From contig CAZLFV010000004.1 of assembly GCA_964558915.1 (NCBI GenBank), positions 643 to 64,642 on the forward strand: a stretch of 64,000 nt of DNA, in the 5' to 3' direction. Position numbers and translations under genes: made by a program. Shown piece by piece: positions 343 through 47,242 of the stretch. The notes beneath the pieces were generated by a model. It saw only the letters and a program-made list of their open reading frames with translations. It searched no databases and was not told the DNA's origin. The stretch comes from an uncultured Eubacteriales bacterium (lineage in GTDB: Bacteria; Acidobacteriota; Aminicenantia; Aminicenantales; UBA8522). Each line of letters starts with the position of its first letter. Position 1 is the first letter of the stretch.

Positions 343-2520
343 TCAGCGGACAGCGACCTTCGAATCCCGGCTTACAAATCTCACGGGCTGGCCCGTCGGA
401 GCGTTGGCAGAAATGCTCGTCACAGCAATGCTTGTCTCTCCTTGAGCCACCGCCTCACAGACAAGAACGGCCAGGCCTCCTCCTCCCTTGAAGCCTCGAT
501 TGACCTGAGGGCTGGAGAGCCCGATCGTGCAGCTTCCTCCGGGATTGTTCACATTCTTCAGGAACGGGGCCTTCCCTCCCATCTGCCGGGTCAGGTCGCC
601 TTCGATGACGTCCTTGAGTTTGATGACCTGGGGGTTAAAACTTAAGTTCAGCGACAGGTTGCCGACTTCCTGCTGCGTTCTTAAGTTGACGCTAACCCGA
701 AACTCCCTTCCCTGAGGGACCTCAAAACTCGCTGGGTCAAGGGAGATTTGGTTAGCCCCGGGCTCCTCGCTGGGCTGCTCCGCCGGCTCTTCCTCTACCC
801 CCGTTATCTCTCTTTTTTCCCCGATTCCCTCGGATACGAGGATCCCTTCTCCGGGAGCGCGTTCTTCTTTTCCTGCCGTACTTACGCCCTCGAGCTGAAC
901 CCAAAGCGGCTTGCGATCCTCGGCCGTTTGGGGAACGGAACGAATGATATAGGGAGTAATGGTCATGATGAGTTCAGTCTTGTCGATGGTCTGGTCGGTT
1001 ACGCCGAAAAGGCTGCCCAGGACGGGAATGCTCGTGAGCCCGGCAATGCCGCGGAGAGATTTTCTCTCTTCATCTCTGAGGAGGCCGGCCAAAAGGTTTG
1101 TCTCTCCATCCTTGAGCCTGAGCGTATTCTTGACTTTTCGGGTGCCGATGATAGGGATATCCGCGTACCCGCTCCCGGCTATATTGGTAATCTCCAGTTC
1201 GATCTCTAGGGTGATTTCGCCCTCGATGTGAATCTTCGGCTTAATCTTGATTTTGAACCCGACATCCTGATAAGTAAAGGATGTCACAGGCTGCTGATTG
1301 ACGCCGCCCGCCGCAATGGGAGTAAAAGTCGTCTGAGGAATGGGCACCTGCTGCCCGATCATCGTCTCGATGTCCTCATCGCTGACGCCCCTAAGCCTCG
1401 GCTGCGCCAGGACTTTGGTATCTGCATCGGATGCCAGAAACCTGATGAAGGCCGTCGGCAAGTTGATCTGGTAGCTGCTCGTTTCACCCAAGGCGATCTC
1501 CCCAAGGTTATACCAGCCGGCGTTTGCCTCACCCTCAACTGCCCCGGGTCCAGCGTATCTAAAACCCACGGCCTCGTCGATGTCCAGCCCGATCTGCCTG
1601 AGTTTCTGGCGGGACACTTCCATAATCTCGAGGTCTATGATGATCTCTCCCTTGGGCTTGTCCCATTTTCTGATCAGCTCGGCAGCCAGTTCGAGGTTCG
1701 CCGGCGTATCTCTCACAGTGACCGTGTTAAGGGTTTTATCCACGAAAATATTGGGGGCGCGGTATTGCGTCCGGAGCATCTGTTGCAGGGCGGCAAAAAT
1801 ATCCTGGGCATTGATATTGGACAGGTAAAAGACCATGATGGCGTTCTGCTCGTACTGGATTCTCTTGACCGGCTGGTCGGGAACGATGATGACCGTCCTC
1901 TCATCGATCACGCGGTAAAAATTCTTGCTGGCAAGACAGAGATAGCCCACCGCTTCTTCAAATTCTCTCCCCGAAAGGTCGATGGAGAGGGGCATATCCT
2001 TGAAGAGTTCGTCGAAAATGATGTTGATCTGGGCATGTTTTCCAAGAGCTTGGAAAATCGAGCGCAGGCTGGCTTCAGTGAACTTGAGCTCGATCTTTTC
2101 GGGGCCCACTTTCAGCTTGACCGGGTAGCCCAGCTTCTCCATTTTCAGCGCTTCTTTCGGGGCGGGCTCTTGAAAGGTTCGCCTCATTTCCTCGATAATG
2201 GCTCTATTGGAAGGATCATAAGAAAGCGCCTTCTGGTATTCCTTGGTCGCTTCGTCTTTCTTTCCATCTCGAAAGAGCCTTCTCGCTTCCTGGAGATGGG
2301 ACAAGCTGGCGGAAATCCTCACCCGGGTCAAGGAGAGCTTGTAGGTATAATCCTTCGGGTTTTCGGCAATCGCTTTCTCGTAATAACTGATGGCTTCATC
2401 CCAGTTCCTGTTCACCTCAGCCTGGGCCCCAAGGTTGTAATAATGGGAGCTGAAGCTCGCGCAACTCCAGAACGATAGCGCCGCTATAATTAATATCAAG
2501 CTGCGTTTTCTCATCGTCAT
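343..2520 (-). CDS. Secretin (PilQ/GspD family) with N-terminal TPR module and C-terminal cohesin-like domain
   Basis: 725-aa ORF. Signal peptide with Cys20. TPR-like repeats (WDEAISYYEKAIAENPKDY, ATKEYQKALSYDPSN). STN/N0-like and Secretin_N-like domains (VFYLSNINAQDIFAALQQML..VDKTLNTVTVRDTPANLELAAELIRKWD). Secretin core (TKVLAQPRLRGVSD..LLAGLLRDEERKSLRGIAGLTSIPVLGSLFG). Acidic linker. Last ~135 aa are cohesin-like (ISLDPASFEVPQGREFRVSVNL..LSLNLSFNPQVIKLKDV). Confidence 0.9.
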   Translation of the reverse strand: MTMRKRSLILIIAALSFWSCASFSSHYYNLGAQAEVNRNWDEAISYYEKAIAENPKDYTYKLSLTRVRISASLSHLQEARRLFRDGKKDEATKEYQKALSYDPSNRAIIEEMRRTFQEPAPKEALKMEKLGYPVKLKVGPEKIELKFTEASLRSIFQALGKHAQINIIFDELFKDMPLSIDLSGREFEEAVGYLCLASKNFYRVIDERTVIIVPDQPVKRIQYEQNAIMVFYLSNINAQDIFAALQQMLRTQYRAPNIFVDKTLNTVTVRDTPANLELAAELIRKWDKPKGEIIIDLEIMEVSRQKLRQIGLDIDEAVGFRYAGPGAVEGEANAGWYNLGEIALGETSSYQINLPTAFIRFLASDADTKVLAQPRLRGVSDEDIETMIGQQVPIPQTTFTPIAAGGVNQQPVTSFTYQDVGFKIKIKPKIHIEGEITLEIELEITNIAGSGYADIPIIGTRKVKNTLRLKDGETNLLAGLLRDEERKSLRGIAGLTSIPVLGSLFGVTDQTIDKTELIMTITPYIIRSVPQTAEDRKPLWVQLEGVSTAGKEERAPGEGILVSEGIGEKREITGVEEEPAEQPSEEPGANQISLDPASFEVPQGREFRVSVNLRTQQEVGNLSLNLSFNPQVIKLKDVIEGDLTRQMGGKAPFLKNVNNPGGSCTIGLSSPQVNRGFKGGGGLAVLVCEAVAQGETSIAVTSISANAPTGQPVRFVSRDSKVAVR

Positions 2521-3047
2521 TCTCCTTCTAAGGAAAATTTCCTTGTCGTGGAGTCGGGCATGACGACTTCCAACTCCCGCGGAGTGATTTTTCCGATCCG
2601 AATACCCTCCAATACTACTTCTCCCTCTATTACAGCCATTGGCTGGCCTTCCAGGATGACCAAAGCAGTTATTTTTTGTGAGGACCTGGTATATTCGATA
2701 AAGCCGATGTACCTAAGATTGACATTCAGGGTCGGAGGAGCTTGCGCTTGTTCCCCCTGAGTTTCAACCTGCTCCGAGGCAATTAACGGGGATGGCTCCT
2801 CGATGATCGGCCGCGCCGTGGCTCCAAACGATGGCTCCGGAGAAAATATGTTCCTTTTGGAGACGACAGGCGCGTCTCTCTGGACGCGGAGCAAGTCCAT
2901 CCTGATGAGACTCATTTTTGACCTTTCCCTGGAGGAGTTTTGGGCCGAGGGGAGAGCAACCGCCCCCGCGCCAACTCGGCCAACCCAGATAAAAACCCAA
3001 ACGACCGCCAGAATCTTAGATACTCTCATAGTATCCCGCCAGAACAA
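2517..3047 (-). CDS. PilP/GspC-like periplasmic pilus-assembly component (hypothetical)
   Basis: 176 aa. N-terminal membrane anchor (MRVSKILAVVWVFIWVG; the start may be Met7 at 3029). C-terminal beta-rich segment LRYIGFI..ALVILEGQPMAVIEGEVV is typical of PilP/GspC HR domains. The position between the PilO-like gene and the secretin, with 4-nt overlap to the secretin, supports the call. Confidence 0.5.
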   Translation of the reverse strand: MFWRDTMRVSKILAVVWVFIWVGRVGAGAVALPSAQNSSRERSKMSLIRMDLLRVQRDAPVVSKRNIFSPEPSFGATARPIIEEPSPLIASEQVETQGEQAQAPPTLNVNLRYIGFIEYTRSSQKITALVILEGQPMAVIEGEVVLEGIRIGKITPRELEVVMPDSTTRKFSLEGE

Positions 3048-3579
3048 CCCTGAGTTCGAGGACGTTTCCGCCGGCGCTGACCTTTATAAAGTCGATTTTC
3101 TCGAGGACAAGGAATTTCGGAAATCGTTCGACCGTGTCGAGGAATCTCTTAAGAATAGGATAGGATCCGGTAAAGGTAAAAGTGACATTGACCCGCCTAA
3201 AGCTCCCCTTTTCTAGGTTCATGTAGTTATACCGAATGGAGCGCAGGGCGATTCCGGATTCGGCCAGAATTTTTTGGAGGTCCACTCGGAGTTCGTTGAG
3301 GCCCTCAGTCTCTTTAAAAAAGTACCTTTTTTTCAGTTCGGCCATATCCTGCTCTGCCTGCTCCCATCTCGAGCATTCCTCAGCGCTGGCGCTTAGGGAT
3401 CCGGTCGCTTCGGAGGCGACTTTCTCCCTGACCTGGAGATCGCTTTCCAAACCAAGATACCGGCGCCGCTGACCCAGGGAGAAGAACACGAAAAAGGCCA
3501 GGACAAGAAGAAAGGCAAGGGCCAACACACGGAGAAGCCTTTTCTCGTTTTCGTTCAAAACGCTAAATATTTCTATCAT
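3016..3579 (-). CDS. PilO/GspM-like inner-membrane assembly protein
   Basis: 187 aa. A single N-terminal TM (LLRVLALAFLLVLAFFVFFSL) is followed by a coiled-coil and an alpha/beta C-terminal domain. Operon position is after the PilN-like gene. Confidence 0.55.
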   Translation of the reverse strand: MIEIFSVLNENEKRLLRVLALAFLLVLAFFVFFSLGQRRRYLGLESDLQVREKVASEATGSLSASAEECSRWEQAEQDMAELKKRYFFKETEGLNELRVDLQKILAESGIALRSIRYNYMNLEKGSFRRVNVTFTFTGSYPILKRFLDTVERFPKFLVLEKIDFIKVSAGGNVLELRVVLAGYYESI

Positions 3580-4120
3580 AGCTGACTGTGATTTCCGAAG
3601 TCAGTTGACCCTGTTCATTTCTCTCTTCGCTTTCCACCAGGGGCAGACTGAAGTTCTGGGCCTGAAGATTACTGATCAGTTTGAGAAGGTCATCCAGGCT
3701 TTCGGAGACGACCTTAAACCGAACCTGGACTCGGGAATCGTCGACGAGCGTGGGGGCCAAGGAGAGAATATAGCTTGGGCCGGGAAGGCAGTCTTCGAGC
3801 CGGGAAAAAAATCCGGTCCAGGAAAAGCTCTTCTTCAGGATAATGCGGTTGATCAGGTCAATTTTATCTTTGTCCCGACTCGCGGCCTCCTTGCTCTTGG
3901 CCACAAGCCGTGTCCTCTCTTTTTGATCCGCGAGGATGGCCTCATTGACTTTTTTAAGAGAGATTTTGACCGTTCTTTTCTTCACGTTGAAATGGAAAAA
4001 AAGGACAGCGGAAAAAAGGGCTAAAACAAGAAGCGCGGTTCCGACAAAGCCCGCCAGGACAAGAAAGAGCCTCCTGTTGCGCAAAGGGGAGGCCGCCAAG
4101 TTCAGATGAATTCGTTTCAT
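3563..4120 (-). CDS. PilN-like inner-membrane assembly protein
   Basis: 185 aa. N-terminus MKRIHLNLAASPLRNRR followed by a TM (LFLVLAGFVGTALLVLALFSAVLFF), which is the PilN-type architecture. 4-nt overlap with the upstream PilM-like gene. Confidence 0.6.
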   Translation of the reverse strand: MKRIHLNLAASPLRNRRLFLVLAGFVGTALLVLALFSAVLFFHFNVKKRTVKISLKKVNEAILADQKERTRLVAKSKEAASRDKDKIDLINRIILKKSFSWTGFFSRLEDCLPGPSYILSLAPTLVDDSRVQVRFKVVSESLDDLLKLISNLQAQNFSLPLVESEERNEQGQLTSEITVSYDRNI

Positions 4121-5070
4121 GGAATCTGCCCGGCAAGGGGCATGAGGATCTCTCGATCCGAAGACCGAACCTCAGCCAGGAGGGGAGACTCGATTGCCCT
4201 GATGGCCAGCGAGAACCTATTGGCTAATTGAGAAATGACCTCCTCCTGCCCCCCACCTAAACTTGAGCGCAACCAGAGGGAGCGAACCTTGCGCTTTTCT
4301 TTATCTTCGATAAAATGAACTGTATTTTCAATTTCCTTTGCTACCATCTCGATTTTTTGCTTCGCCTGAACCAGATTTAGGGGTTCAACGGCAAAAGGCT
4401 TGAAACGATAAAGCATCAGTTCGGATTGCGTGACGGCCGCAAGACTGAATGAATCCTCCTCAATGTTAGCCGCCATGAAGTCTTTCTCGATTTCCCAATC
4501 GACGAGGTTGAGAAGACTCAGAGAGGGGCTCGTCATGATCCCGACGTCAAGGCCAAGGCCGGCAAATAAATCTTCATATTCCTGGAGAACAGCTGTTTTG
4601 GCCAAGGAAACAACCACCTTGACCGAAGAGCTCGAAGTCATGACTTGATAGGAAAGGCGGTTCTCTTCTGGCAGAACGGGCATTTGTTTCTTGATCCGCC
4701 AGCGAAGGAGCTTCTCTCTTTCCCGCTCCGACGGAGGAAAGGACTCAAAGGAAAGGATAAAAACCTTCTGGCAGGCTTCCGGGATAAGGGCTGCCGCACT
4801 CTCCCTGGAGAACTTGAGCCCCTTCAGTCCCTTTTTTATGAGCCCGAGCAGAGTGGCCGCATCAGACATGTTCTTGCGGTCGAAATGCGGCTCGACAAGC
4901 CCTGCTGGCAAAGTCAGGGTCAAATGCTGTTTGATTGTTTTTTCCCTGACCGCGAGATGAATTGCGCTGATATAAGATGAAGACACTTGGACCACCACCT
5001 GGGGACAGGGGGGCACCGTGAGGTAATTCTTCAGTTTCTTTATGAGTTGAGCCATGCGTTCATTCGACAA
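4117..5070 (-). CDS. PilM-like actin-fold assembly protein
   Basis: 317 aa cytoplasmic protein. The VVVQVSSSYISAIHL segment resembles the PilM GIDIGSSSIK phosphate-1 region. Operon position is before the PilN/O-like genes. Confidence 0.6.
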   Translation of the reverse strand: MSNERMAQLIKKLKNYLTVPPCPQVVVQVSSSYISAIHLAVREKTIKQHLTLTLPAGLVEPHFDRKNMSDAATLLGLIKKGLKGLKFSRESAAALIPEACQKVFILSFESFPPSEREREKLLRWRIKKQMPVLPEENRLSYQVMTSSSSVKVVVSLAKTAVLQEYEDLFAGLGLDVGIMTSPSLSLLNLVDWEIEKDFMAANIEEDSFSLAAVTQSELMLYRFKPFAVEPLNLVQAKQKIEMVAKEIENTVHFIEDKEKRKVRSLWLRSSLGGGQEEVISQLANRFSLAIRAIESPLLAEVRSSDREILMPLAGQIP

Positions 5071-6670
5071 AAGTCACTTTGTTCAACTCTTTGAGACTGG
5101 TCACCCCGCCGAGCACTTTTTCCAGTCCCACCTCTCTCAGGAAGACAATGCCCTCGTCCTTGGCCCTTTTTTTCACCTCCGAGAGCGGCTTCCTCTCCAA
5201 GATCATTTCCCTGATCACGTCGGATAATTCCAGGAGCTCGGCGATAGCCGTTCTTCCCTGGTAACCCGTAAGATTGCAGTCGGAACAGCCTCGGGCTTCA
5301 TAGAATACCTGTTTCCTGTAGATGTCCGGCACCAAACCGGATTCGAGGAGCTGGTCGTCCCTGTATTTCACGGGATCTTTGCATCTCGGGCAAAGCACTC
5401 TCACCAGGCGTTGGGCCAGTATGCAGTTCAGGGCTGAAATGAAACTATAAGGGTCGACCTGCATGTGCAGAAAACGACCGATCACATCAAAGACGTTATT
5501 GGCGTGGACAGTGGTGAAGACAAGATGGCCCGTCAGAGCGGATTGGATGGCGATCTGGGCTGTTTCCGGGTCTCTGATCTCCCCCACCATGATCTTGTCG
5601 GGGTCATGCCTCAGGATGGACCTCAGCCCGCGAGCAAAGGTGAGCCCCTTTTTTTCGTTCACCGGGATCTGCGTGATGCCGTCGATCTGGTACTCGACCG
5701 GGTCTTCGATGGTGATGATTTTGTCCTCCGGCGATTTGATCTCCGTCAGTGCGGCGTACAGAGAGGTTGTCTTCCCGCTTCCCGTCGGCCCCGTGACGAG
5801 GATCATCCCGTAGGGCTGGGTGATGTACCGACGGAATTTTCGAAGCACATTGTCAGAAAAACCGAGGAGGTCCAGCTTTAACTCGGATATGGCCTCAGTA
5901 ATCATCTCCTTATCGAGGATGCGGATGACCGCATCCTCGCCATAGATGCTCGGCATGATAGAAACGCGGAAATCGATCGTCTTATCTTTGATCTTGAGCC
6001 GGAATCGTCCGTCCTGAGGGACGCGCCGTTCGGCAATATCCAGGTCGGACATGACCTTGATGCGGGAAATGATCGGCGACTGGAACTTCTTGTCAATCGG
6101 CTCCATCGCCTCATTCAGAACGCCGTCAATGCGGTACTTGATTTTGACTCCGTCTTCTCTGGACTCCACGTGGACATCGCTGGCCCTCTTCTGCACGGCC
6201 GTAAAAATGATGGTGTTGACCAATTTGATGATCGAACCATCCTGGTCAGCCAGTTTCTCCAGCGAAATGACCTCCTCCTCTTCTCCGCTCTCTTTCTCAA
6301 CCACCTGGACGATGAAACCTTCCGTGGCGTCCTTGAGGACCTGGAGGGCTGTTTCACTTTTGCGCAGGGCTTCCTGAATGGCCCATTTGGAAGCGGCATA
6401 AACCTGGACTTTTTTCCCCAGATAGGACTCGATCGAGTCGATCGTCCCGATGTCCGAAGGGTCGGCGATGGCAATTTTGAGGGAATTGTCATTCTCCTCC
6501 AGCGGAATGAAATTGGCCCGGTACAAAAACTCGGGAGGGAAAGACTGGACGAGGTCCCGGTTGACAGCGTGAGCCGAGAGATCGATATAAGGGACGTTGT
6601 ATCTTTCCGCGAGTTTCTTGGTTTCCGTTTCTTCGGCGAGGCTGATTCTTTTAGCGTCCTCTTTCTTCAT
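5060..6670 (-). CDS. GspE/PilB-family secretion ATPase (type IV pilus / T2SS assembly ATPase)
   Basis: 536 aa. N-terminal T2SSE_N/MshEN-like domain (LAERYNVPYIDLSAH..). Walker A GPTGSGKTT. Asp/His boxes. Tetracysteine CPRC..CSDC motif. Confidence 0.92.
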   Translation of the reverse strand: MKKEDAKRISLAEETETKKLAERYNVPYIDLSAHAVNRDLVQSFPPEFLYRANFIPLEENDNSLKIAIADPSDIGTIDSIESYLGKKVQVYAASKWAIQEALRKSETALQVLKDATEGFIVQVVEKESGEEEEVISLEKLADQDGSIIKLVNTIIFTAVQKRASDVHVESREDGVKIKYRIDGVLNEAMEPIDKKFQSPIISRIKVMSDLDIAERRVPQDGRFRLKIKDKTIDFRVSIMPSIYGEDAVIRILDKEMITEAISELKLDLLGFSDNVLRKFRRYITQPYGMILVTGPTGSGKTTSLYAALTEIKSPEDKIITIEDPVEYQIDGITQIPVNEKKGLTFARGLRSILRHDPDKIMVGEIRDPETAQIAIQSALTGHLVFTTVHANNVFDVIGRFLHMQVDPYSFISALNCILAQRLVRVLCPRCKDPVKYRDDQLLESGLVPDIYRKQVFYEARGCSDCNLTGYQGRTAIAELLELSDVIREMILERKPLSEVKKRAKDEGIVFLREVGLEKVLGGVTSLKELNKVTFVE

Positions 6671-6672
6671 GT

Positions 6673-7881
6673 TTATCTCGTGACTCTGATAATATTAAAA
6701 ATGGGAAGATAGACGGCCAGCAACATCAAGGCGACGAGGAGCCCCATGAAGATGATAATGACCGGTTCTATTAACGAGACAAACGTGTCGATTCTGGCTT
6801 GGATTTTTTCGTTATGGACATCGGCGACTTCCCTGAGCATGCCGTGCAAATTGGCCGAATTTTCTCCAATGCGCACCATATCGATGGCCAACTGGCTAAA
6901 AAAACCGGTCCGTCCCAAGGAATCAGATAGACTGCCTCCGTTCCTGATGTCATCCGGAACATGGCGCGTCCGTCTGGCCAGAAACTTGTTCGGAATGGCT
7001 TGAGAGGCGATGGGAAGGGCCTGGAGCAACGTGATGCCCGCCTCCAAGAGAAGTCCGAGAGTCCGGCTGAAGAGAGAAATGGCCGTTTCTGTCCAGACCG
7101 CCCGGGCATAGGGAATCTTGAGCTTGAGCCGATTCAGGAAGATATTCGTTTTCTCGTTCTTCTTAAGTTGCCCAAGGACCAGGATAAGGACGATCAGCAA
7201 GACAATCGCATAGGGCGTCAGTATTCTCAGGACTCCGGCAAAGCCGATCAGCAGACGAGTTATGCCAGGAAGCTGGGCCTCGAAATCCGTATAAAACCCG
7301 GAAAAACGTGGCAAAACAAAATTGACCAGAACGGCCATCAAAATCAGGGAGAAGACCAGGAGGAGCGTGGGATAGATGAGGGCAGCCCTGATCCGGGCCT
7401 TTGTCTGGGCAATCACTCGGGCGTAGTCGATATACCGCCCGATCAATCCAGGTAAATTCCCGCTTTGCTCTCCAGCCAAGAGAGAGGCGGTATAAACCTT
7501 GCCAAAATCCTTCTCAAACGGGCCGAAGGCTTCCGAAAGCGACTTGCCGCCCCGAATCTCTGCTTTCACCTTTACGAACATTTCCCTAAGATGGACATTC
7601 TTCGTCCGGCTGGCGATCAGCTCGATGCTCTTGAGGATAGGATAGCCAGCCCGGAGAAGAGCCATGAGCTCCTGATTAAACAGGATAAAGTCTTTGTCTT
7701 TGACTTTCTTCTCAAACGGAAGGGCCGGGAAAGGCAATTTTTTCCAGTCTTTCTTGACGGACAGGACGCAAAATCCTTCCGACTCAAAGTGCTTCCGGCA
7801 TTCCTCGACTGAGGGGGCCAGAAAAGACTGGTTAAGATAGCGACCGTCCTCGGTGGCCAAGCGGCAGAGGAAATAGGGCAT
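6673..7881 (-). CDS. GspF/PilC-family platform protein
   Basis: Two T2SSF repeats and three TM segments. The track ORF starts at a TTG (7893). I prefer the ATG at 7881 (MPYFLCRLATEDGRYL..), a typical PilC N-terminus. Confidence 0.9.
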   Translation of the reverse strand: MPYFLCRLATEDGRYLNQSFLAPSVEECRKHFESEGFCVLSVKKDWKKLPFPALPFEKKVKDKDFILFNQELMALLRAGYPILKSIELIASRTKNVHLREMFVKVKAEIRGGKSLSEAFGPFEKDFGKVYTASLLAGEQSGNLPGLIGRYIDYARVIAQTKARIRAALIYPTLLLVFSLILMAVLVNFVLPRFSGFYTDFEAQLPGITRLLIGFAGVLRILTPYAIVLLIVLILVLGQLKKNEKTNIFLNRLKLKIPYARAVWTETAISLFSRTLGLLLEAGITLLQALPIASQAIPNKFLARRTRHVPDDIRNGGSLSDSLGRTGFFSQLAIDMVRIGENSANLHGMLREVADVHNEKIQARIDTFVSLIEPVIIIFMGLLVALMLLAVYLPIFNIIRVTR

Positions 7882-7930
7882 TTTATATATCAACCGACTT
7901 TTTCGTCAATTTTGAGTCAATGACACGTTC

Positions 7931-7959
7931 ATATTAGGTTATCCAACCGGCTTTGTCAA
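7931..7959 (-). promoter_or_regulatory. sigma-70-type promoter for the pilus/T2SS-like operon
   Basis: The minus strand reads TTGACA (rc of 7954-7959), a 17-nt spacer, then TAATAT (rc of 7931-7936), about 45 nt upstream of the ATG at 7881. Confidence 0.45.
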
Positions 7960-8069
7960 ATACGCCAAACCGGGACTTCTTCCCTCAAACCAAACCTTCC
8001 CCCTTGATTTTAGTCCATTCAGGCCTCTGGAAGTTGACAAAATATGGCAAAAGAATTATTTTAAAAGCA

Positions 8070-8363
8070 ATGAAGAGAAAGCTTCTCGCGGGGACGGTCT
8101 TCGTTTTGCTGACTCTTTCTGTTTTCTTGTCCCGGTCTCAAGAAACTCGGCCCCCGGAGCAGACAAATCCTCCTCCAGAATCCGTCCCGGCTCCCCCCGA
8201 AGAATACCCGGCCAAGCAACCAAAATACGATTACATGAGCTCCTTTTTTTCAAGAAACACTAAACCTTTGGGACTCAAAGAAGATCAAGCATTGAAAAAA
8301 CTGCTGCGGCAAAGAGGAATCATCTGGGCGGTTAGGACGCAAGTCAGGCATATCCTGGATTAG
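8070..8363 (+). CDS. hypothetical small secreted Pro-rich protein
   Basis: The internal ATG at 8070 gives MKRKLLAGTVFVLLTLSVFLSRSQE (signal peptide), then a PPEQTNPPPESVPAPPEEYP stretch. No recognisable domain. Not a type IV pilin (no G/FTLIE motif). Confidence 0.4.
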   Translation: MKRKLLAGTVFVLLTLSVFLSRSQETRPPEQTNPPPESVPAPPEEYPAKQPKYDYMSSFFSRNTKPLGLKEDQALKKLLRQRGIIWAVRTQVRHILD

Positions 8364-8420
8364 GAATGAGGCCTCAATATTTTTTTCCAAGATTGATTCA
8401 TTTTTTTGGATTTCTCGCTT

Positions 8421-11276
8421 ATGAATAAACGGATCATTCTCTCCCTCATTTTGATCTCTGTATTCCTTACCCTCGGGGGGATCAATATCTACGAGAAGAT
8501 TGTCTGGAAGGAACCCACCGACGGGGCCGTTTGGCAAGAGAAATCAGGAAGGTTTGTCGCCACAAGTGTGGATCTCAACGGTCCTGCCTATCTCGCCGGG
8601 ATCAAGAAAGGAGATATCCTCTATTCTATTAATGACCTTCCCGTTACCAACAAAATTGATATCGCCAAAAGCTGTTGGACCGCCGGGACAACTGGGCAAA
8701 AGGTCAAGTATCAGATCAGCCGGGAGGGAGAGCTTCTTTTCCCCTCCTTTTTCCTGGCGTCCAAAGGCTCCAAGCTCGCTTATTTCTACCTCGCTCTGAT
8801 CGGACTCACCACTTTGATCATAGGTATCGTCGTTTTTTTCAATTCGAAAAAAACCTTCTCCCTGCCTTACCTTTATTTCTATCTCCTTTGCTTTGTCCTG
8901 TATTCCCTTTACGTCTTTTCCTCGACAGGACAAATGGATGTTCTCGACCGTATCTTTTATTGGTTGAACAAAATCGCCCTGCTGGTGTTTCCTCCGCTCT
9001 TGCTTCATTTCTTTCTCATCTTCCCCCAGCGCAAAAGAATCGCCAAGGAGAGAGCATCATCGATCTTCCTTTTCTATCTGCCGGCATTTCTTCTTCTTTT
9101 AGCTCACCTGGTTCTGTATCTTCCGTTTTCGCGAGGCTGGAATGACGGCGCAATTTTTTCCGCCTACAGCACTCTGGAAAGATTAGAAATATTCCATTTC
9201 GCCATTTTTACGATTATCACTCTCTTGGTGCTCGTCGGGAGCCTCCGCCAGCCGATCAATCTCTTGGTGGCAAAGCAGGTCCACTGGATTATCTCCGGGT
9301 TGGGAATTGGGTTTATTCCGTTTATCGTTTTCTATGTTGGGCCCTATGCTCTGGGACACGTCCCTTCGTCCTTTAGCGAGCTGACCATTCTTTTTCAAGC
9401 CCTGATTCCGCTGACTTTTGCTTATTCTGTTTCCCGATACAAACTTATGGATTTCGAGGTGCTGCTTAAAAAGGCCGCCACTCTTATTTTTTCCTACTTC
9501 GTCCTAGCCTGCCTGTATATTGTCCTGAGCTCGCAGACTGAAATGTTCTCAGAGAACAAGCTCAACGTGCTCATCCTCGGGGTTCTGGCCATGATTCTTG
9601 GAGCGACGCTCTTTACGCCGCTGAAAAAGCTGTTTGCCGCTCTTTTTGACAGATTCTTTTATAAGCGGGCGTATAAATACCGGAAAACTCTTCTCTTCAT
9701 CAGCAAAGAGCTCAGCCGGGAAAGAAACCTTCAGCGACTCTCCCAATCGCTCACCGACCTCATCGCCAATGCTCTCTCCCTCAAGAGCCTGGCCCTGCTG
9801 CTTTATCAGGAAGACGGAGGCCAAACATTTCTTGTCTCCAGCTATAAGGGGGAGTCCGCCACGTTCCCCCAAACGATCACTCTTCATCCACAGTTTTGCC
9901 AGGAACTCAAGCAGAAGGACTTAATTTCCTTCGATTCCTTCTCCGATAGAAAAGAGCTTCAGATAGGGGCGGAAATTTCCTCAAGGCTGGGGTTCGCCCA
10001 TTTTCTTCCTCTCAAGGTCGAGGAAAAGCTCGTCGGCTGCCTGGCCATGGGGAAGAAGATCGACAACTCCTTCTTGAACAGCGAAGACTGGGAGTTGCTG
10101 ACGACCATATCCTCGCCGGTTAGCCTGGCCATTGAAAATGCTTCTCTCTACCAACAGGCCAGTATCCGGGCTGTTGAACTCGAGAGGCTCAAAGATTACA
10201 GCGAGAATATTATCGAAAGCCTGACGGTTGGAGTGGCCGTGCTCAACCAAAACGGTGCGGTCATCGGCTGGAACCGAGTCATGGAAAGAATCTTCTCGAT
10301 GGAGAAACAGGAGGCCCTGGGGCGAGGGCTTCGGGACGTCCTCGGACCAAAGAATTTTCTGGCGCTCTTTCCTCCGGACACCCAGCAAGACTTTCGGCTC
10401 CTTGGCGAGATCACTCTGGAAATGCCCCAGGGGGAACACAAAATTTTTGACATTGCCAAAACTCCTCTCCTAGACAACACCATGAATCCCTACGGAACCA
10501 TTGTCGTCTTTGAAGATATCACCGAGAAGATCCGCCTTCAGCAGCAGCTCGTGACCTCGGAAAAACTCGCCTCCATCGGGTTGCTTTCGGCGGGAGTGGC
10601 CCACGAAATCAACACCCCCCTGACCGGAATATCGAGCTATATCCAGCTCCTCCAGAAAAAGATGACCGATTCCCATTACGTCCAGATCCTGGGCAAAATC
10701 GAAGCCCAGACAGAGCGGGTTTCAAAGATCATCAAGAACCTTCTCAATTTCGCCCGCAATCCTTCAGAATCGGCCTTTCATAAAGTTAACATTGTGGACA
10801 GCCTTCAAGAGATCATCTCTCTCATTGACTATAAACTGAAGGCAATGAACATCAAACTGGACATGGACCTGACGCCGGTCCAGCTCATCTGGGCCCAGAA
10901 TGAACGGCTGCAGCAAGTGTTCATCAATATCATCCTGAATGCTTTGGACGCCATGCCCAAGGGGGGGACCTTGAAAATCGGTGTCTCTAGGCAAGACAAT
11001 GTTGTCATGATCAAAATCGCCGACACGGGCGCAGGGATCAAAAAACAGCATCTCCCCCACATCTTCGACCCCTTTTTCACAACCAAGGGCCTCGGCAAGG
11101 GAACCGGTCTGGGCTTGTCGATTTCCTACGCCATCATCAAAGAGCACGAAGGCCATATCGCCGTGGACAGCGAGGTGGGGAAGGGAACCTGCTTCACGAT
11201 TTCTATCCCGGCCGACCTTGAGTTGAAAAAAACAAAACCCAGGTCCTCTGATATCCGGAACTCAAATGCCAGATAA
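8421..11276 (+). CDS. Sensor histidine kinase with N-terminal PDZ, polytopic membrane region, GAF, PAS, HisKA and HATPase domains
   Basis: PDZ-like segment (VDLNGPAYLAGIKKGDILYSINDLPV). About 9 predicted TM helices. GAF-like and PAS regions. H-box GVAHEINTPL. N and G boxes (NIILNALDAM, DTGAGI, GTGLGLS). ATG at 8421 is preferred over the track's TTG at 8406. Confidence 0.9.
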   Translation: MNKRIILSLILISVFLTLGGINIYEKIVWKEPTDGAVWQEKSGRFVATSVDLNGPAYLAGIKKGDILYSINDLPVTNKIDIAKSCWTAGTTGQKVKYQISREGELLFPSFFLASKGSKLAYFYLALIGLTTLIIGIVVFFNSKKTFSLPYLYFYLLCFVLYSLYVFSSTGQMDVLDRIFYWLNKIALLVFPPLLLHFFLIFPQRKRIAKERASSIFLFYLPAFLLLLAHLVLYLPFSRGWNDGAIFSAYSTLERLEIFHFAIFTIITLLVLVGSLRQPINLLVAKQVHWIISGLGIGFIPFIVFYVGPYALGHVPSSFSELTILFQALIPLTFAYSVSRYKLMDFEVLLKKAATLIFSYFVLACLYIVLSSQTEMFSENKLNVLILGVLAMILGATLFTPLKKLFAALFDRFFYKRAYKYRKTLLFISKELSRERNLQRLSQSLTDLIANALSLKSLALLLYQEDGGQTFLVSSYKGESATFPQTITLHPQFCQELKQKDLISFDSFSDRKELQIGAEISSRLGFAHFLPLKVEEKLVGCLAMGKKIDNSFLNSEDWELLTTISSPVSLAIENASLYQQASIRAVELERLKDYSENIIESLTVGVAVLNQNGAVIGWNRVMERIFSMEKQEALGRGLRDVLGPKNFLALFPPDTQQDFRLLGEITLEMPQGEHKIFDIAKTPLLDNTMNPYGTIVVFEDITEKIRLQQQLVTSEKLASIGLLSAGVAHEINTPLTGISSYIQLLQKKMTDSHYVQILGKIEAQTERVSKIIKNLLNFARNPSESAFHKVNIVDSLQEIISLIDYKLKAMNIKLDMDLTPVQLIWAQNERLQQVFINIILNALDAMPKGGTLKIGVSRQDNVVMIKIADTGAGIKKQHLPHIFDPFFTTKGLGKGTGLGLSISYAIIKEHEGHIAVDSEVGKGTCFTISIPADLELKKTKPRSSDIRNSNAR

Positions 11277-12660
11277 AGGGACTATTCATGTTATTGACGA
11301 TGAACCGATTATCCACGAGGTTTTGAGCCAGTTATTGACCTCGGAAGGATATGATATCGAGATTTCATCGTCTGGCGAAGAGGCCCTAGAGAAGCATTCC
11401 TCGCAAGCCTACGACGCGGTCCTTTTGGACCTCCTGATGCCAGGTCTCAGCGGCATCGAAGTCCTCAAGGGAATAAAGAAAATTGACCCCCAGGCCAGCA
11501 TTATTATCATTACGGCCTACGCCTCCGTGGAATCCGCTATTGCCGCCATGAAAATAGGGGCCTACGATTATATTCAAAAGCCTTTTAAGCACGACGAACT
11601 GCTCCTGACGATCGAAAGAGCTCTAGAGCACAAACACCTGCAAAATGAAAATATCCGGCTGAAAGACGAACTCACCCGGAAATTCGGGTTTGACAACATC
11701 ATCGGCAAGAGCGCTCCAATGCTCAAGATTTTCGAGTTGATCAAGGCCGCGGCGCCGACCCGGAGCACGATTCTGATTCAGGGCGAGAGCGGCACGGGCA
11801 AGGAGTTGGTGGCCCGGGCCATCCATCAGAACAGCGACCGGAGGAACTATCCGTTTATCGTTGTCAACAGCGGCGCCCTTCCTCCGGACCTCCTCGAAAG
11901 TCACCTTTTCGGCCATGTGAAGGGCGCATTCACTGGAGCCGTTAGTCAGAAAAAGGGACTCTTTGAGGAAGCAGACAAGGGGAGCATCTTTTTTGATGAG
12001 ATTTCTACGATCAGTCTAGAAACCCAGGCCAAGCTACTCCGAGTGATGCAGGACAAGGAATTCATGCGGCTGGGCGGGACGAAAACCATTGTGGTGGATA
12101 CACGCATCATCGCCGCTACGAACGCCGACCTGGAAGAATTCATCGCTCAGAAGCGCTTTCGTCAAGACCTGTTTTACCGGCTGAATGTTATCAAGATTGA
12201 ACTGCCCCCCTTGCGAGCACGGAGGGAAGACATCCCTCTCCTCGTCAGGCACTTTGTGGACATTTACAGCCGGGAAAACGAGAAGAAAATCGAGAGCGTG
12301 ACCGAAGATGTCATGGAGATTTTAGAAGCTTATGACTGGCCGGGAAATGTCCGGGAGCTGGAAAATTTGATCGAGCGAGCCATTGTCCTGACAAAATCGA
12401 GCCTGATCACCCGGAATAGCCTTCCTCCCTTCTTGTTAACAAATCAACCGGAAGGACCAGAGAGAGACATCCCCGAGGACGCCGAAGACAACTTGACCTT
12501 CAAAAAACAGACGCAAATCTACCAGAAAAAAATCATCCTCAACGCTCTGAGGAAAGCGAAAGGCGTCCAGAAAAAAGCCGCCAAATCCTTGGGATTGAAG
12601 CCGACGACGCTCAACGAAATCATCAAGAGACTCAGGATCAACCTGGACACTTTCTCTTGA
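11266..12660 (+). CDS. sigma-54-dependent response regulator (NtrC/PilR family)
   Basis: Receiver domain (DAVLLDLLMPGLSG). AAA+ with GESGTGKE and a GAFTGA loop. C-terminal Fis-type HTH. 11-nt overlap with the kinase gene. Confidence 0.92.
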   Translation: MPDKGTIHVIDDEPIIHEVLSQLLTSEGYDIEISSSGEEALEKHSSQAYDAVLLDLLMPGLSGIEVLKGIKKIDPQASIIIITAYASVESAIAAMKIGAYDYIQKPFKHDELLLTIERALEHKHLQNENIRLKDELTRKFGFDNIIGKSAPMLKIFELIKAAAPTRSTILIQGESGTGKELVARAIHQNSDRRNYPFIVVNSGALPPDLLESHLFGHVKGAFTGAVSQKKGLFEEADKGSIFFDEISTISLETQAKLLRVMQDKEFMRLGGTKTIVVDTRIIAATNADLEEFIAQKRFRQDLFYRLNVIKIELPPLRARREDIPLLVRHFVDIYSRENEKKIESVTEDVMEILEAYDWPGNVRELENLIERAIVLTKSSLITRNSLPPFLLTNQPEGPERDIPEDAEDNLTFKKQTQIYQKKIILNALRKAKGVQKKAAKSLGLKPTTLNEIIKRLRINLDTFS

Positions 12661-44524: not shown

Positions 44525-44566
44525 TTGAACCCTCTTTTGCTAATAATTATAATCTCGTCACGTGAC
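44525..44566 (+). promoter_or_regulatory. near-consensus sigma-70 promoter plus 10-bp perfect palindrome (candidate operator) upstream of the cytochrome genes
   Basis: TTGAAC (44525-44530), 17 nt, TATAAT (44548-44553). GTCACGTGAC (44557-44566) starts 3 nt after the -10. The GGAGAGGAGAGGA SD precedes the ATG at 44582. Confidence 0.45.
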
Positions 44567-44581
44567 TGGAGAGGAGAGGAC

Positions 44582-45946
44582 ATGAAAGCAACGGTTGCTG
44601 CCTTCATTTTTCTGACTCTCGGCGTGTTCTTCTTTCTCGGCCTGAATCCCGGCCAAAACATCAAGGCCGGCGACCAAGCCCTCGGGACACGGAAATATGA
44701 CGATTACGAAACCCCAAGATTTTGCGGAACCTCATGCCATACGGATTTTTACCAGCAGTGGACTCAGGCAATGATGTCCCAAGCCTACACTCATCACTGG
44801 GATGAAATCGAGTACTTTAAGCTGGCTGTTCCGCATGCCGAGAAGGACAGCGCAGTGGCCGGAGTCAAAGCAGGATGCAACGGATGCCACGCTCCCTTCG
44901 CTTTTCTCGCGGGCGATGTCCCCCCTCCCAAACCCGCCGTGAACAGCCGCGCCAACGAATCGGTCTCCTGCGACCTCTGTCATACTGTCACCGGGTTCGC
45001 CGGCGACACCCCTTTTAACTTTAACTGGATCTCCGAGCCCGGGAAGACTAAATACGGACCGCGCGAGGGCAAGAATTCGCCCGAGCACAACCTGATGAAA
45101 TCAGAATTCCTGGGGAAAGCCGAATTTTGCGGGACTTGTCACAACGAAAAGAGCCCCTACGGAGCCTGGGTCAAAGCCACTCAGCTGGAATGGAAGGAGG
45201 GGCCTTATGCGGCCCAGGGAGTGAAATGCCACGATTGCCACATGACCTATGCTTCGCTGAAGACAGCGTCCATGGGAAATTCCTACCCGGACGCCCGGCT
45301 CCATCTTTTTCACGGAGCGCACGACCCCGGCAAGGTCAGGGGGACGATCGAGCTGAGGATCCAGCCGGATATCAGAGAAGCCGAGCCCGGTGAGGCCGTC
45401 AAGTTCACCATCGCCCTTTTTAACCAGAAAACAGGTCATAAGTTTCCCACCGGCTCCGTAGAGGACCGGATTGTCTGGATGCATGTCGAGGCTGTGGACG
45501 CCAAGGGGAATGTGTACCATCTCCCCGTAGACAAGAAAGGGTTTGAAGGCGAAGAATACACCATAGGCGCGGATGTGCTGGCCTATCAGGATATGGGAAT
45601 CGCCCTAGGAGATGCAACCTTCAAGGGAGTGCAAAGAGACGGCATACCCGTGGGCGACCGGATTTTCCGAATGGCCTATTTCGACCCACAAGGACGGATG
45701 ACCATGCAGCAATGGAACACCAAATCCTTCGGCACAGACTATCGGATTGGCCCGCGGGAAACGAAGATCGAAACCTGCACATTCACGCTCCCTGATACAA
45801 TTCCGCCCGGGACGCTGAGAGTCACAGCCGTACTCAATTATCAGAAATTGGTCAAACCAGTAGCCGACTTCCTGGGAGTGCCGGATGATGAATCGGAAAT
45901 CATCATAGTCAACGAGCACTCGACCGCGGTCACAGTCCTTCAATAA
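44582..45946 (+). CDS. multihaem c-type cytochrome (five haem-binding motifs) with C-terminal beta-sandwich-like region
   Basis: ATG at 44582 (MKATVAAFIFLTLGVFFFLGL signal/anchor). Motifs are CGTSCH (CX3CH), CNGCH, CDLCH, CGTCH and CHDCH. The C-terminal half contains ..FNQKTGHKFPTGSVEDR.. Confidence 0.85.
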   Translation: MKATVAAFIFLTLGVFFFLGLNPGQNIKAGDQALGTRKYDDYETPRFCGTSCHTDFYQQWTQAMMSQAYTHHWDEIEYFKLAVPHAEKDSAVAGVKAGCNGCHAPFAFLAGDVPPPKPAVNSRANESVSCDLCHTVTGFAGDTPFNFNWISEPGKTKYGPREGKNSPEHNLMKSEFLGKAEFCGTCHNEKSPYGAWVKATQLEWKEGPYAAQGVKCHDCHMTYASLKTASMGNSYPDARLHLFHGAHDPGKVRGTIELRIQPDIREAEPGEAVKFTIALFNQKTGHKFPTGSVEDRIVWMHVEAVDAKGNVYHLPVDKKGFEGEEYTIGADVLAYQDMGIALGDATFKGVQRDGIPVGDRIFRMAYFDPQGRMTMQQWNTKSFGTDYRIGPRETKIETCTFTLPDTIPPGTLRVTAVLNYQKLVKPVADFLGVPDDESEIIIVNEHSTAVTVLQ

Positions 45947-45955
45947 GGTGACAAA

Positions 45956-47134
45956 ATGAAAAAATCAACCCTCATTTTCCTGGGAACTGTTCTCTTTCTT
46001 CAAGCGGCTGTGGTCCGGCTTCAGGCGATACCGGCCTTCGCCCGCAAATACACGATGACCTGCAAGACCTGTCACGCTCCCTTTCCCAAGCTCAAGAGCT
46101 ACGGGGAGGAGTTCGCGGCCAACGGCTATGTCATTAAAGACAAAGATACCCCGCGTTATTATGTCGATACAGGCGACAATTTTCTCTCCTTGCTCCGGGA
46201 AGCCCCGATCGCCTTACGGCTGGAGGGATACGTCACTTATGATTATTCCCACACCAAACAATTGGATTTCACAGCTCCGTACTTGATCAAATTCCTCTCG
46301 GGGGGCGAGATCACTAAGAACATTTCCTACTATTTCTATTTTTTCTTTTCCGAGGTTGGGGAGATAGTCGGACTCGAAGACGCCTTCCTGATGTTTAACA
46401 GCCTGTTCGGTTCCAGCCTGGACTTCTATATCGGTCAGTTTCAAGTATGTGACCCGGTCTTCAAGCGAGAGTGCCGCCTCAGCTTCGAGGACTACGCGAT
46501 TTATACGGCCAAACCGGGCACCTCCCAAATTACTCTAACCTACGACAGGGGGGTCATGTTGAATTATGAGCTTCCCACGAAGACAGACCTCTGGCTGGAA
46601 ATTGTCAACGGCAGCGGAATTGACCCGGCCAATCCCTTCGGAAACTTCGATTCGGACAAGTACAAGAATCCTGTTTTCAGGGCCTCCCAGGAAATCGGCG
46701 CCAATTTCCGGCTGGGCGGGTTGGGCTACCTCGGCAAGGAAGAGCAGGACAGCATCGTCAATTCCGTGTGGATGGTGGGTATCGACGCCACTGTATCCGC
46801 CACAGCTCTTGAACTCAACCTTCAATACCTGGAGCGCAGCGACAGCAACCCCTATTTCGTTGTTTCTCTTATGGAAGGCCCGAAAATCAAGACGAGAGGC
46901 GGGTTTGCGGAGCTGATCTTTCTCCCTAAAGGGGATGACAGCCGCTGGTATCTCGTGGGACTCTTCAACCACGTCAGGTCAGGCATCAAAGAGCTGGACT
47001 ACACTTCGGCCACGCTCCACTATGGCCGGCTCTTGAGAAGAAACATCCGGGCCACGGCTGAACTTACTTATGTTCTTGACAGCATTTATAACGAGTATGC
47101 CCAGGTCGAGGCCGGACTGATCCTGGCTTTTTGA
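45956..47134 (+). CDS. outer-membrane beta-barrel protein with an N-terminal CXXCH haem motif
   Basis: 392 aa. Signal peptide ..VVRLQA|IPAF. CKTCH at residues 36-40 in IPAFARKYTMTCKTCHAPFPKLKSYGEEFAANGY. The remainder shows alternating amphipathic beta-strand patterns and ends ..AGLILAF (C-terminal Phe, an OMP signature). Confidence 0.7.
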   Translation: MKKSTLIFLGTVLFLQAAVVRLQAIPAFARKYTMTCKTCHAPFPKLKSYGEEFAANGYVIKDKDTPRYYVDTGDNFLSLLREAPIALRLEGYVTYDYSHTKQLDFTAPYLIKFLSGGEITKNISYYFYFFFSEVGEIVGLEDAFLMFNSLFGSSLDFYIGQFQVCDPVFKRECRLSFEDYAIYTAKPGTSQITLTYDRGVMLNYELPTKTDLWLEIVNGSGIDPANPFGNFDSDKYKNPVFRASQEIGANFRLGGLGYLGKEEQDSIVNSVWMVGIDATVSATALELNLQYLERSDSNPYFVVSLMEGPKIKTRGGFAELIFLPKGDDSRWYLVGLFNHVRSGIKELDYTSATLHYGRLLRRNIRATAELTYVLDSIYNEYAQVEAGLILAF

Positions 47135-47242
47135 GGCCGCGAAGAAATTCGCTGAGGACCCGCGCGTCTGCATTTTTTAGGAGCCGAAGATCTCTATTCT
47201 CCTTAACATTTTTATTTGTTTCTCGATATACTCTTATGTGAA

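Follow-up and report, generated by a model that had tools for sequence, protein, structure and literature searches.

The window analysed here is a stretch of 64,000 nucleotides from contig CAZLFV010000004.1 (assembly GCA_964558915.1; Aminicenantales, Acidobacteriota), and the gene in question is an open reading frame (ORF) near one end of it which codes for a secretin carrying a tetratricopeptide repeat (TPR) module at its N-terminal end and a cohesin-fold domain at its C-terminal end. An initial annotation of the window had proposed an uninterrupted ORF composed of four parts, namely a signal peptide with TPR-like repeats, N0-like and Secretin_N-like domains, a secretin core, and an acidic linker followed by a cohesin-like domain. 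The ORF was recovered as described, its translation agrees with the peptides quoted at the time, and all four parts are real; the strand, which had not been given, is minus. The gene and its parts are as follows.

343-2520, minus strand: entire secretin ORF (725 codons if read from ATG number one), with the stop codon at 343-345
2461-2514, minus strand: lipoprotein-type signal peptide (MRKRSLILIIAALSFWS followed by C), the Cys (residue 20) being encoded at 2463-2461
2173-2451, minus strand: TPR module, residues 24-116, five helices, about 2.5 repeats (Pfam TPR_2/TPR_1 and AlphaFold)
2095-2172, minus strand: flexible Pro/Lys/Glu-rich linker between TPR and N0, residues 117-142 (low predicted local distance difference test score, pLDDT)
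1852-2094, minus strand: N0 (STN-like) domain, residues 143-223 (AlphaFold fold; weak Pfam FecR_C match)
1651-1842, minus strand: single ring-building Secretin_N domain, residues 227-290 (Pfam PF03958 and model)
928-1647, minus strand: secretin core/beta-barrel, residues 292-531 (Pfam PF00263; PDB GspD, PilQ, pIV and RcpA)
754-900, minus strand: disordered acidic Glu/Gly/Pro-rich tether, residues 541-589 (pLDDT 33-47)
346-753, minus strand: C-terminal cohesin-fold domain, residues 590-725 (AlphaFold, Foldseek and Pfam)

An AGGAG Shine-Dalgarno sequence is found at 2526-2522; its distance is 1 nt to the first ATG (2520) and 7 nt to the second (2514). The first ATG overlaps the stop codon of the upstream PilP-like gene (ATGA), and an identical protein in the databases (P0001) starts at the second Met (Met3). 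Based on the Shine-Dalgarno spacing and the start of P0001, translation probably begins at the ATG at 2514, giving a product of 723 aa. The residue numbering used here is that of the 725-aa version, in which the lipobox Cys is Cys20 (Cys18 in the 723-aa product).

Stand-alone "cohesin" proteins of 113-247 aa exist among the database entries, and would be in line with the three-part ORF being an artefact of a chimeric assembly or of a frameshift joining neighbouring genes, a possibility raised together with the fusion itself. The ORF is however unbroken in over 120 full-length clusters of proteins as well as in the 80 best-matching loci from independent genomes (49-100% identity), which excludes such an artefact; the probability that we would still give it is negligible. 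When the C-terminal domain was used by itself as the query, no more than 15 short proteins were retrieved. The only fragment that was traced, P0126, was rejected as a stand-alone cohesin, as it represents part of a broken secretin gene of locus L001, and the remaining short cohesin proteins look like similar fragments. In L001 (contig_39997 of ERZ25039515, positions 834-8414), the secretin and GspF genes are each broken into several short ORFs, probably due to assembly indel errors, and split genes of this type probably explain both the "stand-alone cohesin" and the "stand-alone secretin" proteins found in the databases.

Cys20 is invariant in the close homologs (120/120), where it is part of the motif [LF]W[GS]C, and likewise in the aligned distant homologs (alignment A5), where lipoboxes such as LLSGC, LAGCA and IAGCA are observed. 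A strict PROSITE-type lipobox pattern is matched by 99 of 117 distant homologs, the canonical form being L-[AS]-G-C. The lipobox Cys which marks liposecretins of the HxcQ type is present, with the Aminicenantes motif [LF]W[GS]C departing from the pattern at position -2. Downstream of the Cys, Pfam TPR_2/TPR_1 match above cut-off at residues 27-57, with a weaker TPR match at 81-105, and the AlphaFold model shows helices at 24-36, 40-53, 58-84, 88-101 and 106-116 with a pLDDT of approximately 90-95. The TPR module predicted initially is therefore there, but these five modelled helices make up about 2.5 repeats and not about three. Taken together, lipobox and TPR correspond to a lipoprotein made of TPR repeats, although with about 2.5 of them. 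The linker which follows (residues 117-142) has a pLDDT of approximately 55-73, lacks secondary structure in the model and varies in length in alignment A5.

The protein is a member of the secretin superfamily (PF00263). The Secretin domain matches at residues 362-527 (E 4.6e-33, 114.6 bits against a cut-off of 27.5) and the Secretin_N domain (PF03958) at residues 230-290 (E 1.4e-11, 44.9 bits against a cut-off of 28.2), while a sequence search of the PDB aligns residues ~138-531 with the GspD, PilQ, pIV and RcpA secretins, so that the secretin core recognised initially is confirmed both by Pfam and by solved secretins. The full-length AlphaFold model, which was built from an alignment of 44 sequences and begins with the signal-peptide helix, has a pLDDT of 79 and a predicted template modelling score (pTM) of 0.44. 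Within it, residues 146-223 adopt the beta-alpha-beta-beta-alpha-beta-beta fold of an N0 domain, and Pfam FecR_C, which has an STN-like fold, matches weakly at residues 145-212 (E 1.6e-4). Of the two N-terminal domains that had been proposed, Secretin_N is thus found by Pfam and N0 by the model, whereas PF07660 (STN) itself does not match this protein; precomputed PF07660 matches are carried by its homologs. N0 (modelled) and at least one Secretin_N domain (Pfam) are accordingly both present, as in other members of the superfamily. The barrel spans residues 292-527 in the model, with a low-confidence loop at 316-354, and ends with a short helix (499-505), at the position of the amphipathic helical loop of solved secretins, and a long final strand (507-527). 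As it is composed of N0, a single ring domain and the barrel only, the channel body is minimal.

The region between the barrel and the C-terminal domain is disordered in the model (residues 545-587) and carries a net charge of -9 (residues 541-590, corresponding to 539-588 of P0001). The ~50 residues ahead of the cohesin are the least conserved part of the protein, and the family tethers, which are rich in Pro/Ala/Gly/Glu, range from 28 to 200 aa (median 74). Considering the low pLDDT, the poor conservation and this range of lengths, the tether is flexible. The cohesin domain, on the other hand, is conserved as strongly as the barrel. Its AlphaFold model (the C-terminal 141 aa, residues 585-725, from an alignment of 27 sequences) is an all-beta sandwich with a mean pLDDT of 93 and a pTM of 0.86, which follows the nine-stranded jelly-roll topology of cohesins. 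A Foldseek search of this model against the PDB gave 163 matches at E<=0.001, the best 50 of which are all cohesin modules (TM-score 0.69-0.84). The top match is 2xdh (E 8.7e-12, TM 0.81, root mean square deviation, rmsd, 2.4 A, 22% identity), followed by type I and type II cellulosomal cohesins, many of them solved with dockerins, the closest type I modules having a TM-score of 0.81-0.84. Pfam Cohesin (PF00963) matches residues 600-705 with E 1.5e-4 and 22.4 bits, just below the cut-off of 24.1 bits, and most close and distant homologs carry a precomputed PF00963 match. The Archaeoglobus cohesin 2xdh was also found in the PDB sequence search (residues 597-646), as the sole match that is neither a secretin nor a TPR protein. 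The cohesin-like domain suggested from the translation is in this way borne out at the level of the fold.

More than 120 protein clusters (57-100% identity, 701-724 aa), uniform in their Pfam domains, came out of the first homology search, and the named members of the close clusters are Candidatus Aminicenantes. In a scan of one genome per GTDB species, relatives were found in 198 genomes; the locus counts given here refer to the best 80, which match essentially over the full length at 49-88% identity and come from Aminicenantes metagenome-assembled genomes (MAGs), including Ca. Aminicenans sakinawicola. Among the same 80 loci (L005-L084), many of the MAGs with the Aminicenantes-type operon (50-88% identity) are titled "uncultured Eubacteriales bacterium", "Clostridiales bacterium" or "Candidatus Desulfaltia sp.", which look like placeholder or wrong taxonomic labels. 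A phmmer search of 1.84 billion representatives at 50% identity gave 1103 matches at E<=1e-30. In a first pass with our own domain hidden Markov models (HMMs), the full layout of TPR, N0/N1, secretin and cohesin was found in 83 of the best 150 representatives, and with a broader cohesin HMM, TPR, secretin and cohesin were found together in 105 of the 115 complete-looking ones. Most representatives without the full layout look truncated in the linker or have out-of-frame tails. Pfam found nothing in the C-terminal tails of the representatives that appeared to have TPR and secretin without cohesin; alternative modules at the cohesin position were rejected, since most of these tails are divergent cohesins according to a family-specific HMM and the rest are truncated or frameshifted. 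Distant members have 27-39% identity and 700-890 aa, and the only names recovered for them are "Acidobacteriota bacterium" and "Vicinamibacterales bacterium".

The TPR, secretin and cohesin modules are inherited together, and the layout is kept as a unit across the Acidobacteriota: it is the standard secretin of its operon throughout the Aminicenantia and is widespread in other Acidobacteriota. Regarding the earlier remark that no characterised secretin has this three-part layout, the lack of a description appears to be true, but the layout is common and not rare. No PDB chain unites a secretin and a cohesin part in either the sequence or the Foldseek searches, and the layout is undescribed in the literature that was searched on secretins (including PilQ and GspD) in connection with cohesins, fused TPR modules, or the Aminicenantes and Acidobacteria. 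The sequences are already public under generic names (product names include "general secretion pathway protein D" and "cohesin domain-containing protein"); what is new is the recognition and interpretation of the layout.

The secretin is the last gene of a seven-gene operon on the minus strand, in the order GspF, PilB/GspE, PilM, PilN, PilO, PilP and secretin, next to which a two-component system is divergently encoded. The genes upstream of the secretin are the following.

2517-3047, minus strand: PilP/GspC-HR-like protein (by-eye translation: signal/transmembrane segment, Pro-rich linker, C-terminal beta domain)
3016-3579, minus strand: PilO/GspM-like protein (weak Pfam T2SSM_b and PilO matches; NCBIfam GspM, 31 bits; syntenic)
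3563-4120, minus strand: PilN-like bitopic protein (operon position; single transmembrane segment; the equivalent in locus L085 weakly matches PilN)
4117-5070, minus strand: PilM-like protein (NCBIfam pilM, E 3e-4; the equivalents in L085 and L086 match Pfam PilM_2)
5060-6670, minus strand: PilB/GspE-type assembly ATPase with N-terminal MshEN (Pfam T2SSE, E 3e-130, and MshEN)
6673-7893, minus strand: GspF/PilC platform protein (Pfam T2SSF twice; NCBIfam GspF, 271 bits)
8406-12660, plus strand: sensor histidine kinase (8406-11276) and sigma-54-dependent response regulator (11266-12660), divergent from the operon (NCBIfam)

Of the 80 Aminicenantes loci, 62-75 preserve the seven-gene order and ~50 have the kinase/regulator pair adjoining the operon, the other loci being cut by contig ends in both cases; the PilP-like gene, which is unmatched in Pfam, is syntenic in 75/80. 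The same gene order surrounds two distant homologs, in which Pfam matches for PilM_2 and PilN are obtained and N_methyl pilin-like genes are located directly downstream of the operon. Operon and synteny show the secretin to be encoded together with the ATPase, the platform and the alignment proteins of a type IV filament, as is the case for the secretin superfamily; the machine it is part of is a type IV filament apparatus of the PilM-N-O-P type (pilus-like, or resembling a T2SS, the type II secretion system). This machine is not named more narrowly because the NCBIfam equivalogs of the T2SS, of the type IVa pilus (T4aP) and of the mannose-sensitive haemagglutinin (MSHA) pilus are widely missed; the ATPase, for instance, scores 540 bits with PilB and 531 bits with GspE, both under the equivalog cut-offs.

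No prepilin motifs were found in the window. Prepilin-like genes occur 2-9 kb downstream of the secretin in ~15 Aminicenantes loci, where they are clustered in twos or threes (for example L030, 14334-16691; L032, 6972-9257; L044, 14690-16831), typically coding for ~140-200 aa, and in most clusters for ~330-430 aa in the case of the third gene. In the one triplet tested (L030), the first two genes have N_methyl motifs and the first also has weak similarity to GspH. In L005, the closest relative of the window, the position of the prepilin cluster is taken by unrelated genes; the window itself ends 342 nt past the secretin.

When compared with known systems, the secretin does not qualify as a member of the T2SS GspD (TIGR02517; 155.6 bits against an equivalog cut-off of 351), T4aP PilQ (TIGR02515; 106.7 bits against 284, with no AMIN match) or MSHA MshL (TIGR02519; 85 bits against 250) families. 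GspD has N0-N3 and a C-terminal S-domain, whereas here N0 and one N domain are present, and the tether and cohesin stand where the helical S-domain would be expected. Among secretin structures, phage pIV (PDB 7ofh) gives the best target coverage (TMt 0.67). The body of pIV is equally minimal, being made up of N0, a single ring domain and the secretin barrel; it differs in having no lipobox, TPR or cohesin and in being encoded by a filamentous phage. HxcQ of Pseudomonas aeruginosa resembles our protein in that the secretin itself is a lipoprotein, lipidation being only predicted for the present one. It differs from the present protein in that it is not known to have a TPR or a C-terminal cohesin and in that it belongs to a classical Hxc T2SS. 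According to a 2025 paper (PMC12475490), which cites Viarre et al. 2009 for it, HxcQ is self-piloting, as an N-terminal lipid anchor and linker replace the separate pilotin, and it is named there as the known exception to the pilotin requirement. BfpB of the type IVb pilus (PMC4453517; PDB 9u5s, which is among our Foldseek matches) also has an N-terminal lipid-anchored Cys, but differs in its operon type and has neither TPR nor cohesin modules.

The TPR module is reminiscent of PilF/PilW/Tgl (T4aP) and TadD (Tad), which are TPR proteins held by a lipid anchor on the inner side of the outer membrane and are needed for secretin assembly. These are however separate polypeptides with more repeats, while in our case ~2.5 repeats are fused to the N terminus of the secretin, and generic TPR similarity is the only sequence relationship found. 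TadD is known to bind the C-terminal residues of the secretin RcpA in its TPR groove (PMC10499894). As for the C-terminal part, the S-domain secretins (GspD with AspS/PulS, and InvG) have in common with it a module for protein contacts right after the barrel, on the outer periplasmic side, but the S-domain is a short helical segment binding a lipoprotein pilotin and not a long disordered tether with a 135-aa beta-sandwich cohesin. The non-cellulosomal cohesin of Archaeoglobus fulgidus (2xdh) and the type I cohesins have the same fold (TM 0.81-0.84, rmsd ~2.4 A over ~140 residues), but they belong to scaffoldins or to free proteins (extracellular or archaeal) for which dockerin partners are known, while the present domain is C-terminal on an outer-membrane channel. 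HxcQ and BfpB, the TPR pilotins and the S-domain secretins each share one part with our protein, and none of them combines all three.

Judging from the sequence, the models and these analogies, we tentatively propose that the protein is a self-piloting "liposecretin" in which the TPR module replaces the pilotin and a tethered cohesin takes the position of the S-domain, a composite reading that we consider plausible rather than probable. Cleavage by signal peptidase II and acylation of the Cys would direct the protein to the outer membrane via the Lol pathway, as has been shown for HxcQ. The lipid-anchored TPR could there take over from a separate TPR pilotin (PilF/PilW/Tgl or TadD), aiding insertion or the stability of the oligomer. 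A pilotin function in cis had been put forward in the initial annotation, and it is supported in part by the conservation of the Cys, by the lipobox of 99/117 distant homologs and by TPR lipoproteins being the class of pilotins that serves T4aP and Tad secretins. With the ~25-residue linker behind the TPR, N0 would be able to extend to its PilP-like partner at the channel base. If the strands run as they do in solved secretins, the chain would exit the barrel on the periplasmic side, and the tether and cohesin would therefore occupy the position of the S-domain of T2SS and T3SS (type III secretion system) secretins, whose C termini are periplasmic and bind pilotins (PMC4453517). With 12-15 copies, by analogy with the stoichiometries of solved secretins, the cohesins would form a flexible ring of docking modules under the outer membrane, which is the most economical picture since this is where the S-domain of T2SS and T3SS secretins sits. 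Such a ring would bind a partner in the envelope, candidates being the ring's own TPR modules, a lipoprotein of the outer membrane or a component of the wall, and this binding would anchor or stabilise the channel.

Several observations weigh against the self-piloting liposecretin. The TPR profile retrieved only generic or designed TPR proteins among its best 60 PDB matches and no relative of a pilotin, no pilotin model is among the NCBIfam matches at E<=0.01, and PilF/PilW have roughly six TPR repeats, as opposed to ~2.5 here. Only 7 of the 120 close (Aminicenantes) homologs match the strict lipobox pattern. This is because the pattern disallows the Trp at -2; when Trp is allowed at this position, 107/120 match and the remainder are N-terminally truncated gene calls, and lipidation of the Aminicenantes proteins is likely as far as can be judged from the sequences. 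Given the pTM of 0.44, the full-length model does not provide reliable contacts between TPR, barrel and cohesin. A dockerin-like partner, which the initial annotation suggested looking for, was not found when the window and ~1.5 Mb of related loci were searched by motif; the motif search of the ORFs of 80 Aminicenantes loci (L005-L084) gave one loose match, which is not a dockerin. An HMM search for a second cohesin among all ORFs of the window and related loci found the secretin itself only, and a function of the cohesin in docking a partner or cargo, likewise put forward in the initial annotation, would follow only from the roles of cohesins elsewhere. Finally, in flow cytometry of intact cells, C-terminal tags were accessible in the type IV pilus (T4P) secretins BfpB and PilQ but not in T2SS and T3SS secretins (Lieberman et al., PMC4453517). 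As the C termini of BfpB and PilQ are reported to be extracellular, the periplasmic placement of the cohesin is uncertain.

If the tether and cohesin were instead displayed outside the cell, they would form a ring of docking sites around the pore, holding dockerin-bearing or other secreted enzymes or adhesins, much like a cellulosome anchor built into the secretin. The tag accessibilities fit this arrangement, as do the separate PilM, PilN and PilO genes of the operon, which are found in T4aP systems as well, and the many dockerin-bound cohesins among the best Foldseek matches; the Pro/Ala/Gly/Glu-rich linkers of 28-200 aa also resemble those of scaffoldins. Surface display nevertheless seems improbable to us, since the outer membrane would have to be crossed by a folded domain of 135 aa, the surroundings of the 84 loci yielded no dockerin, and the modelled last strand after the helix at 499-505 points to a periplasmic exit when read against secretins solved by cryo-electron microscopy (cryo-EM). 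The topology model of 2015 (a 16-strand monomer barrel, PMC4453517) moreover predates the cryo-EM structures. The cohesins could alternatively capture folded exoproteins in the periplasm and concentrate them at the entrance of a T2SS-like channel. T2SS models do score best or comparably (GspD 156 bits, GspF 271 and GspM 31), pseudopilin-like genes have weak GspH and T2SSG matches, the tether length is highly variable, and cohesins are protein-docking modules. This is nonetheless the least credible of the functional explanations: all NCBIfam T2SS equivalog cut-offs are widely missed, neither the window nor the ~1.5 Mb of related loci yielded a dockerin, no candidate cargo is known, the arrangement is without precedent, and the tether starts outside the barrel wall while cargo enters the vestibule from below. 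Phrased more generally, the secretin could be channel and scaffold at once, with 12-15 functional cohesins docking dockerin-bearing or otherwise tagged exoproteins at the pore, be it at the cell surface once they have been exported or in the periplasm immediately before export; we find this improbable. The extracellular C termini reported for T4P secretins (PMC4453517) speak for the surface version of the scaffold.

It could also be that both additional modules are passive, with a TPR that has no pilotin role and a cohesin that has no specific protein partner. They would link the channel with peptidoglycan, with the outer membrane or with exopolysaccharide, or serve as spacers, and would then be comparable to the AMIN domains of PilQ, an example of how secretins vary at the N terminus; AMIN domains were not found in the present secretin by Pfam. 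The jelly-roll beta-sandwich of cohesins is of a type also used by carbohydrate-binding modules. The searches for partners (dockerin, second cohesin) in the window and related loci were empty, and secretin N-terminal regions are known to differ between systems (PMC7545093). On the other side, the best 50 structural matches are all cohesins and not carbohydrate-binding modules, and the strict conservation of the lipobox Cys throughout the family points to targeting or anchoring tied to lipidation, so that passive anchoring appears unlikely, though it is to be taken seriously.

The targeting and assembly of secretins have usually been studied with separate pilotins. If the self-piloting liposecretin is correct, a lipidated TPR fused to the secretin would be a second, independent answer to the piloting problem besides HxcQ, and one represented by a large natural family. 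As the fusion fixes both stoichiometry and proximity, it would offer a natural experiment on the contacts of TPR pilotins. No report of a cohesin tethered to a secretin was found in the literature searched, and the cohesin would add a docking function to an outer-membrane channel, whatever its partner. Should the scaffold reading be true, the protein would be a diderm, secretion-coupled counterpart of the cellulosome anchor. Acidobacteriota are abundant and mostly uncultured, and considering that the family is conserved in the Aminicenantia and present in other Acidobacteriota, their pilus or secretion apparatus is probably unlike the proteobacterial models used for annotation.

Three one-mismatch matches to the sigma-54 consensus are found in the window, which is no more than expected by chance, and none of them is in the intergenic region between the operon and the kinase gene (7894-8405). 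A small ORF at 7953-8363 (plus strand; Met at ~8068), which immediately precedes the histidine kinase gene on that strand, codes for a secreted Pro-rich protein which is unmatched in Pfam; a 114-aa gene is present at the equivalent position in L001. An Rfam scan of the window returned nothing, and the remainder of the window consists of housekeeping genes, among which a few other observations were made. At 49202-51298 (minus strand), adjoining the RNase HII gene and away from the pilus operon, a 698-aa protein consists almost wholly of TPR repeats and has no obvious signal peptide. A trio at 47216-49157 (plus strand) codes for an extracytoplasmic function (ECF) sigma factor, a zf-HC2 anti-sigma factor and a secreted protein of 249 aa, in which the stretch ITISDFPENVKKILALIRELDVKPADIQFTIQLV resembles a Secretin_N ring domain, without a secretin core. 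A similar trio (ECF sigma, zf-HC2 and a protein of 289 aa) is found in the distant locus L085, where it directly precedes the homologous pilus operon; the 249-aa and 289-aa proteins are only weakly similar to each other (E 0.011). Lastly, two neighbouring genes are found at 44525-47134 (plus strand): a 473-aa protein encoded there has 4-5 CXXCH haem motifs and weak MtrC/MtrF-like and cytochrome c7 matches, and the gene after it codes for a secreted protein of 392 aa with one CXXCH and a C-terminal Phe, as often seen in outer-membrane barrels; from their sequences, the two may form a porin-cytochrome pair.

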